Below are positions 1,889 through 15,446 of a stretch of 15,692 nucleotides of DNA, in pieces. Position numbers and translations under genes: made by a program. The notes beneath the pieces were generated by a model that saw nothing but the letters and a program-made list of their open reading frames with translations, searched no databases and was not told where the DNA came from. Source of the DNA: Candidatus Aenigmatarchaeota archaeon (GTDB taxonomy: Archaea; Aenigmatarchaeota; Aenigmatarchaeia; GW2011-AR5; JAGGXF01); contig JAOZPR010000003.1 of assembly GCA_029932645.1 (NCBI GenBank), positions 28,131-43,822 on the forward strand. Reading direction: 5' to 3'. Every line of letters begins with the position of its first letter. Within the stretch, counting starts at the first letter, position 1.

Positions 1889-3112
1889 ATGAAGATGTTG
1901 ATCATGAAAAAAGACGAAATAGTTAATATTTTTTTGGATGCTGGCTTTTTGATTAGTTCTGATGCATTGGATTTTCTGGCTGCGGCCGACAAAACAGACG
2001 ACGACATCAAGGCGATGATAACTAAAATAAAAGATAAGACCAGCCCAGAAAAATTACCAGAAAAAGCCGTGATCATGCTCTCTGATATAAAACAACCTGA
2101 TGCGGGCGAAGGGGCAGACAAAGGCACTTCAGAGGCCAAAGATGAAAGCAAAGATGAAATAAAAATCATAAAAAATATTACTAAGAAGTTGGACGAGATT
2201 AAGACAGAAGACTTCCTGCATTTTTACCAGGACAAATATAAAAAAATGCAGAAAATCATACAAGGCAAAATTAAAGCGAATTTTGTTTCGATAAACAAGC
2301 TTGGTGGTTTGCGAAAAGAGGTTACTGTTATAGGCATAGTTAAGGATAAGAAAGAAAAGGAAGAAAAGCAGGTTCTTGAACTGGAAGACATGACAGGGGC
2401 TGTTCCAGTTGTTTTTAGTTCGGGGGTTGTTGATACAGCAAGCGTTGATTTGGATGATGTCATCGCTGTTCGTGGAATATCGGCAACCAGAGTAATATAT
2501 GGGAAAGAGATAATATATCCAGATATTCCACTACGTTCTGCTTCTTCTGGCTCTGGAAAGGCATGTTTCATTTCTGATTTACATCTAAACGAGGCACCAA
2601 CAACCGACATTAAAAAGTTTTTCAAATGGTTTTCACAAAGCGATATAAAGTATTTGTTTGTGGCTGGGGACATCGTAGACATGGCCGCATTTGAGAAGTT
2701 TATAGAAGAGTTTAATGGGAGAAAAACTTTTGTTATCATACCAGGCAACATGGATAATAATGAATATCCGGCCTTACCGATTAAAATACACGAGAAAGGA
2801 GAAAAAAGGAATATAGTATCACTAAGCAATCCAGCAATGGTTGAACTAAATAATATTAAAATACTACTTGTCCACGATTTTAATCTTAGTATGCTAAAGA
2901 AGCGGTATCTTGGAAAATCAAAAGATATCTTAGAAGAGGATTATCTTGTCTTGGATGAGGTGCCTGATATTGTGCACTGCGGCCATACACATGAGCCGTT
3001 CGTTAGAAATTATAAGTCTGTTACAATAGTAAACAGCGGTTCGCCGCTGACCGAGTTCAGGCCGGTTGTTGTCGATTTCAACACACGGGCAGTAGAACAA
3101 GTAAAGATATAA
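1889..3112 (+). CDS. PolD small subunit DP1 homolog (N-terminal helical domain, OB fold, calcineurin-like phosphoesterase), shortened and probably exonuclease-dead
   Basis: OB fold EVTVIGIVKDK...LELEDMTG...DDVIAVRG...YPDIP; phosphoesterase motifs ISDLH, AGDIVD, PGNMD, SNPAMV, LLVHD, EDYLVLDEVPDIVHCGHTH, VNSGS, in DP1 order. True start may be ATG 1895 or 1904. Confidence 0.92.
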   Translation: MKMLIMKKDEIVNIFLDAGFLISSDALDFLAAADKTDDDIKAMITKIKDKTSPEKLPEKAVIMLSDIKQPDAGEGADKGTSEAKDESKDEIKIIKNITKKLDEIKTEDFLHFYQDKYKKMQKIIQGKIKANFVSINKLGGLRKEVTVIGIVKDKKEKEEKQVLELEDMTGAVPVVFSSGVVDTASVDLDDVIAVRGISATRVIYGKEIIYPDIPLRSASSGSGKACFISDLHLNEAPTTDIKKFFKWFSQSDIKYLFVAGDIVDMAAFEKFIEEFNGRKTFVIIPGNMDNNEYPALPIKIHEKGEKRNIVSLSNPAMVELNNIKILLVHDFNLSMLKKRYLGKSKDILEEDYLVLDEVPDIVHCGHTHEPFVRNYKSVTIVNSGSPLTEFRPVVVDFNTRAVEQVKI

Positions 3113-3167
3113 TGAGATATAATAAAGATAAAGACATGTGAATAAAAAGACAATTCTTTCAATAAAC

Positions 3168-3175
3168 TATAAATA
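3168..3175 (+). promoter_or_regulatory. Possible TATA box for polB
   Basis: TATAAATA preceded by A-rich AATAAAC in the 180 bp DP1-polB gap; position and composition only. Confidence 0.3.
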
Positions 3176-3292
3176 TTTAGAGCGTTAAATTGTTTGTTGG
3201 GCCTGTGGTTTGTTGTACGTGTGTTTGTAATTATTATAGTTGTTATTGTTATCGTTTATTGTTGTCATATTAGTGTGTAGTGGGTTGGTCTA

Positions 3293-6025
3293 ATGGTTAG
3301 GTTACAGTTATTAGATGCTGATTATATCATAGCAGACAACAAGCCAATCATACGTCTTTTTTGTAAGACCGATACAGGAAGGACAGCCTGCGTTTTTTCA
3401 AAGGACTTTCGACCTTATTTTTATGTTTATGGCGACAACGAAAAGATAGTGGAGGTTTTAAATAAAAAATATTCTGACAGGGTGCATAAAATACAAGAGG
3501 CCAAGAAATTTTTTTCAATAGGTTATACGGCGCGCCCGACACACGTGTTGAAGGTGTTCACAAACGTACCTTCTGATGTGCCATTCTTAAGAGACGAACT
3601 GTTTGAAAAGTATCGAAAAATCGTTAAAAAAATTTTTGAGGCAGATATACTCTTCAAGTATCGTTTCATGGTAGATAACGGACTGGCGGGTATGTGCTGG
3701 TTTGATGTTGTTGGCGGAAAACAGTTTAGCAAAACTGTTAAGTGCCCGATTATTGAGGCAAAAACAATCAAGCCCGTGCGAGAAGTGAAGAATGCACCAT
3801 TGAAATATTTATCGTTCGATATTGAAGCAATATCCTATGATTATAACAGAATGGTTGATGAAAAGAGAGACCCCATTGTTATGATTTCTATGGCTTTTAA
3901 TCCTAGTTATCGCGGAAAGAAAACACTTGTTCTTGTTGCAAAGCAGGGCGCCAGAGAAAAAGACGTTGAAAATTTTTCCAGCGAGAAAGAGATGTTGGAA
4001 AGATTTCTGGCCATAATAGATGATTTTGATCCGGACGTTTTGACTGGTTATAATATTATTAATTTCGACATTCCATACATCTTGGAGCGTCTCGGAAGAA
4101 ACAATCTGCCGAAAAACTTTGGTAGAATAACTGATAAACCATGTTTTGTTAGGAAATTCGGTGCTTACCAGACCTGTACTGTTGTTGGCAGGGTGGTTGT
4201 TGACCCGTACCAGATTATCAAGGCAGACCCATTCATGCGTTTCAAGAGATATGATCTGAACACGGTTGCTCTTGAGATGCTGGGAGACGGAAAAATAGAT
4301 GTTGGTTATAAGGAAATGGTGAAGCTCTGGAATGGCTCTAGTGAAAAGCTTAGTAAGTTTATTAGGTATTCCCGTAAGGACGCTGACCTGGCACTCAAAA
4401 TATTATTAAATACCGACCTTTTGGGTAAATTTTTTGAACTCTCAAAGGTTTCTGGCCTTCTCTTACAAGACAGTCTTGGCGGTCAGTCTGCCCGTGTGGA
4501 AACAAGCTTTCTCCGGGCATGCGGAAAACGGGATTTTGTGATACCCACAAAGCCATCAAAGGCTGAAATAATTAAGCGGGAAACAGAGCGACAGAAAAAA
4601 GGCCTGAAGGGTGCCACAGTTCTCGAACCAAAAAAGGGGCTACATGCAGATGGCTGTGTTTTGGTTCTGGATTTCAAGAGCCTGTACCCATCACTAATAA
4701 GAACCTTTAATATATGCCCGACTTGCCTGATTACCAAGGACTCCCCAACAAATGTTAAAAAACACAAAACACCCTCTGGTTCATATTTTGTCGACGAAAC
4801 TGTTCGGAGGGGCGTTTTACCAAGCATACTTGAGAACCTGCTTGAGACACGGTTCGCAATAAAGAAGAAGATGAAAAAGGTAAGCGGAGAGGAAGCAAGG
4901 ATTCTGAATGCGAAGCAGCTCGCACTGAAAATCATGGCAAATTCTTTCTATGGTTACACAGGTTATCTTCGCGCGCGCTTATATGTCATGGATGTTGCCA
5001 ACAGTATTACAGCATATGGCAGGGAAAATATACAAAAGACAAAAAAGATAATTGAAGAAAACTTTCCTGTTGAGGTTATATATGGCGACACAGATTCTAT
5101 CTTTTTGAAGACAGACATAACAAATCTAGACAAGGCTGCCCAACTCGGGAAAAGAATTAGCAAGTATGTAACAGAGCACCTGCCAGGATATCTTGAGCTG
5201 GAGTTTGAAAAGGTGTACCGAACATTCCTGATACTTACAAAAAAACGCTATGCCGGCTGGAAATTTGTTGAGGTTGAAGGCAAGTGGAAAGACTCTATAG
5301 ACATGCGTGGTATAGAGACTGTACGGCGTGACTGGTGTCAGCTGGTTACTGATGTGATGAATCATATACTTGAGCTGATATTGAGGCACGGCGATGTCAA
5401 AAAGGCCATAGATTATGTCAAAACAGTTCTGCTGGAACTCCGACAGGGTAAGGTGCCTCTGGAAAAGCTAACGATTATAAAGGGCATCACAAAAACACCA
5501 TCTGCATACAAGGGTGTGCTCCCACACATAGAGCTGGCCAAGAAGCTGTATCGACGGGACCCTGTGCATGCACCACCGGTCGGTGGGCGGATAGGTTTTG
5601 TTATAATAAAGGGCAACCAGATGCTTTCCAAGCGTGCCGAAGACCCGGAATATGCCAAGAAACATGGTCTGTTAATAGACTCGAAATATTACATAGAGAA
5701 TCAAGTCCTACCGCCTGTTGCAAGGATTTTAAGTGCTGTGGGCGTCTCATCAAGCGAACTTCTTGGCGGTGGACAACAGGTTTCGTTGTCAGATGCCATA
5801 TCCGGAAAAAAACGCAAGCTAAATCATAAAATAAGTCTGGAATATTCTGGCAGCAGTAAAAGAGAAGAAAAGCCACTTGACAGCTGGGAAGAGTTTGTCT
5901 GCTCCAAGTGTAAGAAGTCATATCGCCGCATGCCACTTACTGGCCGATGTGAGTGTGGGGGCGAGCTTCTCATTGCGTATCATGGCAGCGTTTCCCGAAA
6001 GGTCAGAAAACAGGCCAAGAAGTAA
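3293..6025 (+). CDS. polB: Family B DNA polymerase (PolB3-like) with C-terminal DP2-like C4 zinc finger
   Basis: ExoI SFDIEA, ExoII GYNIINFDIPY, ExoIII YSRKDA; polymerase motifs DFKSLYPS, KQLALKIMANSFYGY, YGDTDS, KKRYAG, RGIETVRRDW, all intact. N-terminal DADY/RPYFY/EADILF as in archaeal PolB3. C-terminal extension with C870, C873, C886, C888. Confidence 0.97.
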   Translation: MVRLQLLDADYIIADNKPIIRLFCKTDTGRTACVFSKDFRPYFYVYGDNEKIVEVLNKKYSDRVHKIQEAKKFFSIGYTARPTHVLKVFTNVPSDVPFLRDELFEKYRKIVKKIFEADILFKYRFMVDNGLAGMCWFDVVGGKQFSKTVKCPIIEAKTIKPVREVKNAPLKYLSFDIEAISYDYNRMVDEKRDPIVMISMAFNPSYRGKKTLVLVAKQGAREKDVENFSSEKEMLERFLAIIDDFDPDVLTGYNIINFDIPYILERLGRNNLPKNFGRITDKPCFVRKFGAYQTCTVVGRVVVDPYQIIKADPFMRFKRYDLNTVALEMLGDGKIDVGYKEMVKLWNGSSEKLSKFIRYSRKDADLALKILLNTDLLGKFFELSKVSGLLLQDSLGGQSARVETSFLRACGKRDFVIPTKPSKAEIIKRETERQKKGLKGATVLEPKKGLHADGCVLVLDFKSLYPSLIRTFNICPTCLITKDSPTNVKKHKTPSGSYFVDETVRRGVLPSILENLLETRFAIKKKMKKVSGEEARILNAKQLALKIMANSFYGYTGYLRARLYVMDVANSITAYGRENIQKTKKIIEENFPVEVIYGDTDSIFLKTDITNLDKAAQLGKRISKYVTEHLPGYLELEFEKVYRTFLILTKKRYAGWKFVEVEGKWKDSIDMRGIETVRRDWCQLVTDVMNHILELILRHGDVKKAIDYVKTVLLELRQGKVPLEKLTIIKGITKTPSAYKGVLPHIELAKKLYRRDPVHAPPVGGRIGFVIIKGNQMLSKRAEDPEYAKKHGLLIDSKYYIENQVLPPVARILSAVGVSSSELLGGGQQVSLSDAISGKKRKLNHKISLEYSGSSKREEKPLDSWEEFVCSKCKKSYRRMPLTGRCECGGELLIAYHGSVSRKVRKQAKK

Positions 6026-12760: not shown

Positions 12761-14161
12761 ATGGTAAAGAAAAAAATAAAAAAGCTAAAACAGCTCTTGG
12801 GGTTTATCAAAGACGAAAAGCTTAAGGAACAAGTGGAAGAAGAAGCTGGCCTAGAAAAAGAAGAGGGCATCAAGGTTGAGGAAAAATATCATCCAGAAAA
12901 GGACGAGATAGAAATAGACATAACAGGAGCACGGCATTTCTCTCATGTTTTGTCAAATTTCGTACAAAAACACTGGGCCAAATTGGCATTATTGCTTATC
13001 ATCTTGTTGGCGTTCTACATCAGAATTTTTGCTTTCAATTACCCGTACCTAATTAATATAGACTCATACTATTTTTACAGGTATATGGATTTCATCGTAG
13101 AGGACGGCGGAATACCGAACATCGATCCGTACATGCTTGCGCCAGAAGGGCTAAACACAGGAAGCATAGCCAGATTTTATATGTATCTTGGCGCGTACTC
13201 ATACATGTTTTTTGCTCGCCTGTTTCCTGGTCTGCAGCTGTGGCGATATCTTATATACTTCCCTGCAGCCATAGCAGCGCTTTGTGCTATACCAATATAT
13301 TTCATTGGTAAATATCTATTTGATAAAAAGGCAGGAATAATAGCAGCTTTTTTCTTGGTTTTCAACCCATTTAACATGACACGAACGCTTGGCGGGGATC
13401 CGGATTCTGATGGCATTGTTCTGCTAATGACACTAATACCAGTCGCGTTGTTTTTGGCAACCCAAAAGAATATTGAAAAGCAGGGACTAGGCAAACGTTC
13501 TGTCTTGCTGGCTGCACTTACAGGGCTTGCCTTGGCACTTTTCACGCACACATGGGGCGGCTCTTGGTATATGGTCTGGCTTTTCGCGGGTTTTGTGGCA
13601 GTCAAACTTATAGCAGAGTTCTTAATCCTCGGTGATACAAGAAAGGCGTGGAAACAGAACAAGAAAATCATCTCATCTTTCCTAATCATCATATTAATTT
13701 ATATTCTATTAATTGTCCCGTTCTTTGGTGTTAACAAACTTGTCGGTATAATAAATGCGCCAACAGGAGCTCTCGGGATGAAAGCAGAAGCCAGCAGGCG
13801 GTTTCCCAATGTGTGGGTTTCTATTGCCGAGATGATGTCGCCAGAGGGAGCAACTTTCTTTGACAAGATAAACACGATAGCAACGCGCGCGACAGGCATG
13901 CCGCTTGGCGGCATCGCCACAATTGTTCATCCGTTTTTCCTCGCTATATACGCGATGATTTATTTCATCGTTTCTTACATCAAAAAGAAAAAGCATCTTG
14001 ACAGTCTCATATTGATGTTTTTATGGTTCGTAGGCCCGCTCTACGCAAGCACTGTTGCCGTGCGTTTTGTTATCTTGTTATCAACACCGCTAATAGTTTT
14101 ATCCAGTATTGCTCTTGCAAAACTGTTTGATATTGTAATGGGGAAGGATCTTTTGGATTAA
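12761..14161 (+). CDS. aglB: Oligosaccharyltransferase AglB/STT3, N-terminal membrane half
   Basis: LAFYIR...NIDSYYFYR (first catalytic Asp), DPYMLAPEG, RTLGGDPDSD (DxD-type), TWGG, VSIAEM (TIXE/SVSE equivalent), AVRF; many TM segments; no WWD motif in this ORF. Confidence 0.88.
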   Translation: MVKKKIKKLKQLLGFIKDEKLKEQVEEEAGLEKEEGIKVEEKYHPEKDEIEIDITGARHFSHVLSNFVQKHWAKLALLLIILLAFYIRIFAFNYPYLINIDSYYFYRYMDFIVEDGGIPNIDPYMLAPEGLNTGSIARFYMYLGAYSYMFFARLFPGLQLWRYLIYFPAAIAALCAIPIYFIGKYLFDKKAGIIAAFFLVFNPFNMTRTLGGDPDSDGIVLLMTLIPVALFLATQKNIEKQGLGKRSVLLAALTGLALALFTHTWGGSWYMVWLFAGFVAVKLIAEFLILGDTRKAWKQNKKIISSFLIIILIYILLIVPFFGVNKLVGIINAPTGALGMKAEASRRFPNVWVSIAEMMSPEGATFFDKINTIATRATGMPLGGIATIVHPFFLAIYAMIYFIVSYIKKKKHLDSLILMFLWFVGPLYASTVAVRFVILLSTPLIVLSSIALAKLFDIVMGKDLLD

Positions 14162-14174
14162 AAAAGATGGTATT

Positions 14175-15446
14175 ATGAAAATAACAGATGAGGGAGTTGC
14201 ATCAGCCCTGCTTTGGCTAGTCAGTGTTATTTATCTGGCTGGGTTTACTGTTCCTATTGCTGGTCTCAAGATATCGCAGTTCCCCCTTCCTGTTACTATC
14301 GGAGCCATTCCATTCAGATGGTTGTTTTTGGTTTTTTATTCAATTGCATTGTTTTTCCTGTTTTCATGGGTTGAGATAAAGAACAAAAACATCCTCGCCG
14401 GACTGGTTGTGTTTTTTTCATTGCTATTATCTGTCTTGTTAGATTATAAATTGGTTATCGTTTTATTAGCTCTTGGCGCATACTTCCACTATAAAAAGAA
14501 GCCGCAATGGGATAAAATTTTAGTTATCCTTATTTTATTCTTCTTTATCTACATTCCAACAGTTGCCTCTTTTGACCAGTCATATGTTATTGCTGCCAAC
14601 CCGAGGGCGATATTAACGCCAAGTTGGTGGACCGCGCTGAACTGGATTAAGAACAACACGGAAGAGTGCGCGGTGGTTGCAACCTATTGGGATCCGGGAC
14701 ACTTCATAACAGGCATCGCGAGAAGGCCTGTTGTTTATGATGGCGGAACTCAGAATGCTCTTGCCCAATTTAATAAATCATCTGTTGATTTGAACTCCAA
14801 GGCATTCCAGGACCCGACCATGTTTACTATAGAAGGCAACACGGTTGTGAGATCGCGTATGAAGGACATGGCAACAACCCTGTTCACAGACGACGAAGAG
14901 CTTGCTTACGACATTCTTAAGCTATATCGTGGTAATTGCTCAGAAATGTATTATCTTGCTTCCTGGGATTTAATCGGAAAGTCTCAGTGGTGGTCATATT
15001 TCTCGACCTGGGAGCCAAACAAGGCCACAGGTAACAAATATTTTTATATTCCGTTGCAGTTGTCGATGAAAAAAGAAGGCGAAGACGGCTCTACCAATTA
15101 TGTTTTTTCGCTTGGCCAGAACCAAGCGATTGTGATAAACGAAAAAACAGCAGGCGGCCAAACAATTATGACACCAGTATTAAAGCAAGGTCCATCATTC
15201 ACAAAGATAAGCAAGCTATTCTACTTCGAAAACGGTAAGGCATTTATGCAGCAATATCAAGGTGCAGAAGTAGAAGGCATGGTTTGGCTTGACCCAAGCA
15301 AGCAGTCCCTATTTTTCATACCAAAGGAACTTGAGAACAGCATGTTCACGCGTCTCTTCTTCTTCCAGGGCCAGGGACTCAAACACTTTGAGTTTGTGAA
15401 CAACTGGGGCGGAGAAGTTAAGTTATTCAAGGTTAAGTTTGATTAA
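14175..15446 (+). CDS. aglB: Oligosaccharyltransferase AglB/STT3, C-terminal half (several TM helices plus soluble WWDYG-type domain)
   Basis: WWTALNWIKNNT...VVATYWDPGHFITGIARRPVVYDGGTQ, DLIGK (DK-type motif), NSMFTRLFF, EVKLFKV C-terminus. Confidence 0.88.
   Translation: MKITDEGVASALLWLVSVIYLAGFTVPIAGLKISQFPLPVTIGAIPFRWLFLVFYSIALFFLFSWVEIKNKNILAGLVVFFSLLLSVLLDYKLVIVLLALGAYFHYKKKPQWDKILVILILFFFIYIPTVASFDQSYVIAANPRAILTPSWWTALNWIKNNTEECAVVATYWDPGHFITGIARRPVVYDGGTQNALAQFNKSSVDLNSKAFQDPTMFTIEGNTVVRSRMKDMATTLFTDDEELAYDILKLYRGNCSEMYYLASWDLIGKSQWWSYFSTWEPNKATGNKYFYIPLQLSMKKEGEDGSTNYVFSLGQNQAIVINEKTAGGQTIMTPVLKQGPSFTKISKLFYFENGKAFMQQYQGAEVEGMVWLDPSKQSLFFIPKELENSMFTRLFFFQGQGLKHFEFVNNWGGEVKLFKVKFD

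Follow-up and report, generated by a model that had tools for sequence, protein, structure and literature searches.

How does a family-B DNA polymerase (PolB) that ends in a cysteine finger resembling part of PolD relate to the homologue of the small PolD subunit (DP1) encoded in front of it? This question is raised by a stretch of 15,692 nt of Candidatus Aenigmatarchaeota DNA, called the window below, in which cdc6, a Nudix gene, a DP1 homologue and a 910-aa PolB all lie on the + strand. We consider it very likely that the finger, of the type of the Zn-III site found in DP2, PolD's large subunit, binds zinc and docks the intact PolB onto the neighbouring, probably nuclease-dead DP1. The finger-PolB/DP1 arrangement is already published for Aenigmarchaeota, in 2020 and 2025 (PMC7544198, PMC12680538; these and all other papers are cited here from partial text). 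Small additions made here are a PIP-like motif ahead of the finger, which may already have been described, and a bare-finger tail in one family (f5). The features of the window are the following:

205-1425, + strand: orc1/cdc6, head of the cluster (Pfam Cdc6_C, 1.6e-25)
1456-1860, + strand: Nudix gene between orc1/cdc6 and the DP1 homologue (Pfam NUDIX, 3.3e-15)
1889-3112, + strand: homologue of DP1 (PolD small subunit), 407 aa, likely partner of the finger (PDB matches)
3293-6025, + strand: family-B DNA polymerase, 910 aa (Pfam DNA_pol_B, 4.6e-117; exo1, 5e-39)
5777-5800, + strand: PIP-box-like motif Q829-x-x-L832, predicted PCNA-binding site
5801-5884, + strand: variable linker from the PIP-like motif to the finger, modelled partly with low confidence
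5885-5995, + strand: four-cysteine finger of the DP2 Zn-III type, W865-S901 (C870, C873, C886, C888; R878, R879, P881), predicted to be all-beta

Positions 1-204 (upstream of cdc6) and 3113-3292 (between DP1 and PolB) are non-coding. At 12761-14161 and 14175-15446 an oligosaccharyltransferase is apparently split over two adjacent ORFs, with an STT3 N-terminal part (Pfam, E 1.2e-25) and another part that weakly matches the AglB core (Pfam, E 0.065). A search for related loci returned seven, the closest titled one (79% identity) from Ca. Aenigmatarchaeota.

Polymerase core, tail and finger

The PolB at 3293-6025 is the sole PF00136 match in the genome. Its conservation was read from alignment A1, whose 85 rows comprise the query, 21 locus ORFs and 63 of the 71 further proteins found with PolB residues 780-910 as query; P0071 and seven others (five with inteins, two partial) were excluded. 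The acidic residues D176, E178, D259, D363, D460, D599 and D601 are invariant (85/85 rows), and judged by such residues the exonuclease and polymerase sites are intact. Against the PDB, the scores for PolB of Pyrococcus and for human Pol delta are close, at 383 and 374 bits. Many PolB orthologues, including those of several genomes of the order, measure 1,298-1,808 aa and have insertions around query positions 547-600; five of them, P0013, P0017, P0018, P0024 and P0037, carry PF14890 (intein splicing). Some genomes of the order possess a second PolB with 32-36% identity (e.g. G058:C2, G061:C8, G060:C38), the match of which stops before the finger; no such copy was found in the genome of the window, which is 89% complete.

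In the AlphaFold2 model of the PolB, built on A1 (mean pLDDT 91), the thumb is followed by two short helices (820-823, 832-837) and then by strands only (867-870, 891-896, 899-901), with the finger strands at pLDDT 87-88 and linker residues 855-858 below 50. No helix is modelled beyond residue 837, and the finger modelled in isolation forms the same strands. The last Cys is followed by 22 residues in this PolB and by 16-27 across the 85 PolB rows, versus 60-61 in seven DP2s. Model and residue counts together support the absence of the DP2 helices, which the first-pass annotation had described as short or absent; the helical bundle that flanks the finger in the full C-terminal domain (CTD) of DP2 and in the Pol alpha/epsilon CTD is not seen in the PolB tail.

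Ahead of the linker, Q829 is conserved in 84 of 85 rows, and position 832 is L, I, M, V or F in all 85. PolBs without a finger terminate at this very position, in Q-x-x-L-x-x-F, the form of a PIP box. The genome possesses a PCNA gene, and Q829-x-x-L832 is predicted to be a PCNA-binding site. The first Cys comes 17-56 residues after Q829 over the 85 rows, and 41 residues after it here. In family f5 (four of six genomes read: G053, G048, G052 and G049; L139-L142) the tail consists of the PIP-like motif, a short linker, the finger and 3-7 residues after the last Cys, i.e. a bare finger. Split matches had suggested a separate or frameshifted finger gene in f5, a possibility rejected by the finger being in frame on its short linker.

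The peptide EEFVCSKCKKSYRRMPLTGRCECGGELLI lies in frame at the C-terminal end of the PolB ORF. Its Cys codons start at 5900, 5909, 5948 and 5954 (C870, C873, C886 and C888), which confirms the C-x2-C-x12-C-x-C motif noticed at the end of PolB from the letters of the sequence. It is the one Cys4 motif of the tail, with just four Cys beyond residue 700. A six-frame translation of the genome (1.44 M residues) contains the loose pattern C-x2-C-x12-C-x1-2-C 12 times, and the DP2-type pattern with a Y/F-x-R-x-P...G core once, in the PolB tail. The four-Cys pattern occurs in 71 of the 72 proteins (query included) found with residues 780-910, a set biased toward finger-bearing proteins since the query region contains the finger. 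The single homologue that lacks the second Cys pair, P0071, has a deletion of about ten residues, either a real loss or an assembly error. In A1 the four Cys are invariant (85/85), G884 is found in 84 rows and P881 in 79; the loop positions 878-879 are both basic in 50 rows, with at least one basic residue in 67.

Several searches relate this finger to Zn-III, the last of the zinc sites in DP2. The 81 C-terminal residues of PolB, compared with the PDB as a single sequence, match three DP2 sequences (E 1.5e-4 to 9.4e-4) followed by the next match at 0.072, so that DP2 chains are the sole matches below E 0.001. A 31-row finger profile matches DP2 at E 1.7e-8 and 1.4e-7, over a span of just ~30 residues, i.e. 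the finger itself, and the next protein at 0.002. Conversely, the 585-aa C-terminal half of a DP2 from a related genome matches the finger alone in the genome of the window (43% identity, E 3.7e-5). Pairwise, finger and DP2 share 16 of 39 residues, and identities range from 41 to 50%, the RRxPLxGxC loop included. The best Pfam match of the tail, zf-DPOE (E 0.022), is below the cut-off. Homology to DP2 Zn-III, as proposed at first pass, is thus supported by the sequence and profile matches, and in the profile comparison with the PDB the best match is DP2, not an unrelated zinc ribbon.

Fold searches do not single out DP2. With the finger model, Foldseek places three DP2 chains at ranks 1-3, with an rmsd of 1.0-1.1 A across 31-32 columns, at an E of just 0.03 and nothing reaching E <= 0.001; further down, at rank 42, comes a weak match to the Pol epsilon CTD (5vbn_B, E 1.3). 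A wide VIA-align search with a 50-residue model is uninformative: it returns assorted zinc ribbons at Z 2.0-3.5, with Nob1 first (Z 3.5), TFIIE-alpha also above DP2, and DP2 sixth (Z 2.3).

The likely DP1 partner and the distribution of both systems

The DP1 homologue is the sole copy found in the genome, and its six PDB matches, the best at E 1.3e-19, are without exception DP1 chains. Its motif reads PGNMD, with Met288 where the catalytic His of GNH is expected; in P. abyssi DP1 this His (H451) is described as the catalytic proton donor (PMC6355029). None of 34 aligned DP1 homologues, made up of the query and 33 locus ORFs (late-start readings excluded), has a His in this column. The other metal ligands are kept in 19-28 of the 34 rows, Asn in just 7, and the homologue itself retains D230, H232, D261, N287, H329, H366 and H368. 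With most metal ligands retained, it is the one missing His that points to a probably nuclease-dead DP1.

Among genomes of the order, 65 of 70 have a PolB match and 61 of 70 a DP1 homologue. Where both are placed, the DP1 homologue lies upstream, codirectional and within 2 kb of PolB in 46 of 58 genomes, a count from which we removed genomes with a distant PolB paralogue alone, as well as two DP1 matches that were partial or weak. Neither the genome of the window (0/1) nor any of the 70 order genomes gave a DP2_N match, while the control search was positive in 3 of 14 reference genomes; since the genome of the window is 89% complete, the absence of DP2 rests on the order-wide result.

Across the phylum the finger profile gives raw matches in 336 of 371 genomes, and in 94 of the 98 good ones among them; weak matches may be other zinc ribbons. 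Given this spread, a mis-assembly or chimera was rejected as the origin of the finger. In 150 rows of these matches, most fall on ORFs of ~870-960 aa, and in family f40 the match falls on DP2. DP2_N is confined to 17 of the 371 genomes, 16 of the 17 genomes of f40 plus G181. Family f40 (G354-G370; L069-L077, L079-L097, L101-L121) combines DP2, a DP1 with all motifs (PGNHD in 14/14 found) and a finger-less PolB (15/15 genomes with an assembled PolB end, two being cut by contig ends). It is a natural control that shows the reverse of the state with finger PolB, His-less DP1 and loss of DP2. All six f5 genomes have a DP1 homologue, and DP2_N was found in none of them. G181 contains both systems, a DP1-DP2 pair (L068, L122) alongside a degraded DP1 and a PolB that bears the finger (L078, L096, L123). 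Its DP2 contig may be foreign, by mis-binning or transfer, because its DP2 is just 36-39% identical to f40 DP2s; within f40, one DP2 compared with eight others shows 62-78% identity. As the genomes are related and the counts non-independent, the whole pattern may reflect one or two events.

Proposed docking of the finger and its alternatives

By analogy with PolD (PMC6355029, in part), the finger would bind zinc and its R-R-x-P loop would lie in the acidic groove that separates the OB domain of DP1 from its phosphoesterase (PDE) domain. In this scheme PolB would both synthesise and proofread, PCNA would be bound by the PIP-like motif ahead of the linker, and the sole task of DP1 would be that of an adaptor linking to the replisome, a role suggested by the binding of DP1N to GINS reported for Thermococcus (PMC9023282, in part). 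The pair of PolB and DP1 would then replace PolD as replicase, a eukaryote-like PolB plus B-subunit. A 20-residue Zn-III peptide binds DP1 with nanomolar affinity in P. horikoshii, as cited in PMC6355029. Published interaction labels name "PolB", and we infer the finger as the DP1 contact by this analogy. Two points speak against an interface that merely repeats that of PolD: DP2 helices add PDE contacts there according to the same source, and these PDE-contacting helices are missing here. As the basic pair at 878-879 is present in just 50 of 85 rows, the docking loop also varies more than strict docking would lead one to expect.

We lean slightly towards the bare finger of ~30 residues being the entire polymerase-side interface to DP1. 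If so, it would be the smallest known joint between a eukaryote-type PolB and its B-subunit, and its position after a PCNA-binding motif on a flexible linker would let PolB stay clamped to PCNA while DP1 connects it to the replisome. The bare-finger tail of f5 and the PolD-keeping f40 are useful material for testing whether the finger alone holds DP1.

A different partner for the finger, DNA or another replisome protein (primase, RPA or GINS), with DP1 bound elsewhere on PolB or not at all, appears improbable. The absent DP1-contacting helices and the variable Arg pair would fit it, as would reports that the Zn-III region of PolD also lines the DNA clamp (PMC6355029) and that the DP2 CTD binds primase too in Heimdallarchaeia (PMC12680538). 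It is opposed by the co-occurrence of finger PolB, His-less DP1 and DP2 loss, with f40 as the reverse case, by the P. horikoshii peptide, which binds DP1 on its own, and by the interaction data of PMC12680538, where DP1 bound only PolBs with a DP2-derived CTD. The suggestion of another partner made at first pass is weakened by this distribution and by the published two-hybrid results, and keeps some room with regard to the finger itself. Far less credible still is that the tail is an unrelated zinc ribbon, of the Nob1, RpoP or adenylate-kinase type, that came to resemble DP2 by convergence. The VIA-align ranks of Nob1 and TFIIE-alpha and the short matched stretch (~30-39 residues) are the points in its favour, against which stand the profile values for DP2 and the next protein (1.7e-8 vs 0.002), the 41-50% identity that extends through the RRxPLxGxC loop, and the strong genetic link to DP1. 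The sequence search of the PDB, the profile search and the search of the genome with the DP2 C-terminal half largely refute it.

Docking of a DP2-derived finger on DP1 would be compatible with two published routes of origin, and the direct acquisition from DP2 proposed at first pass is one of them. PMC7544198 proposes acquisition from DP2 zfIII by recombination. On the other route, to which we give even chances, the finger would function in the same way, and a full PolB-DP2CTD fusion like that of Baldrarchaeia would have been trimmed down to it. In PMC12680538 the Aenigmatarchaeota CTD is termed degenerate and both PolBs are grouped together, and its authors argue in the peer-review file that the full-CTD form is ancestral; the f5 tails, down to 3-7 residues after the last Cys, show that trimming happens. 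Besides the recombination proposal, the 85 rows with 16-27 residues after the last Cys speak against a trimmed fusion, none of those examined having room for the helices.

Comparison with known systems

By its features the PolB of the window fits the group B6-aenigma1 of Aenigmarchaeota. Kazlauskas et al. (2020) describe this group as PolBs mostly of Aenigmarchaeota with one metal motif closest to that of DP2, proposed to be a product of recombination from DP2 zfIII, in hosts where DP2 is mostly absent and DP1 inactive (PMC7544198, in part); in phylogeny the group is placed within B6, next to the Delta-like clade. The present PolB has a single C-terminal Cys4 motif closest to DP2 zfIII, its named homologues are likewise from Ca. 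Aenigmatarchaeota, and in its genome DP2 was not found and DP1 is retained with a degraded active site; there is no difference in kind from the group as described in those parts of the paper. The last ~320 residues of UniRef50_A0A256ZSH7 (Table S2 of PMC7544198) match those of this PolB by eye, finger included, and Table S4 assigns to B6 a PolB listed for an organism of that same name. One table row of that paper for the related organism AR5 is labelled B4, and P0021, under the AR5 name, has the finger despite this label; the table labels, as far as covered here, are not fully consistent.

Feng et al. (2025) describe the Aenigmatarchaeota CTD as "degenerate", shorter and different in predicted structure, and report the PolB-DP1 interaction in Aenigmatarchaeota by AlphaFold3 and two-hybrid (PMC12680538, in part). 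The two-hybrid source-data labels comprise two Aenigma DP1-PolB pairs from two named assemblies and name "PolB", not the finger. The phylum is named as DP2-less in the portion of PMC12680538 cited, whereas in f40 DP2 is retained together with a DP1 that looks intact. Among the literature matches listed, none describes a structure or a purified complex for the B6-aenigma1 group.

The system represents a present-day archaeal example of the exchange from which the eukaryotic replicases are believed to stem, a point already published (PMC7544198, PMC12680538): a PolB core replaces DP2, and the docking finger of DP2 and a disabled DP1 are retained. With the CTD of DP2 in PolD (P. abyssi 6HMS/6T8H, T. 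kodakarensis 6KNB; PMC6355029, in part) it shares the Zn-III finger and the K-x-R-R-x-P loop that docks on DP1. PolD differs by the flanking helices of DP2, a two-barrel polymerase core and an active exonuclease in DP1. The order in DP2 is finger, helices and PIP-like end, in contrast to PIP-like motif, linker and finger here, where the finger comes last. With the Pol alpha/epsilon CTD (CysB) and B-subunit of eukaryotes and with Baldrarchaeia PolB3 (formerly B6-aenigma2) the shared features are a PolB core and, for binding a DP1 homologue, a zinc module derived from DP2. Both of these possess two metal motifs and a helical bundle, whereas the present PolB has a single finger, with just four Cys beyond residue 700, and lacks a bundle.
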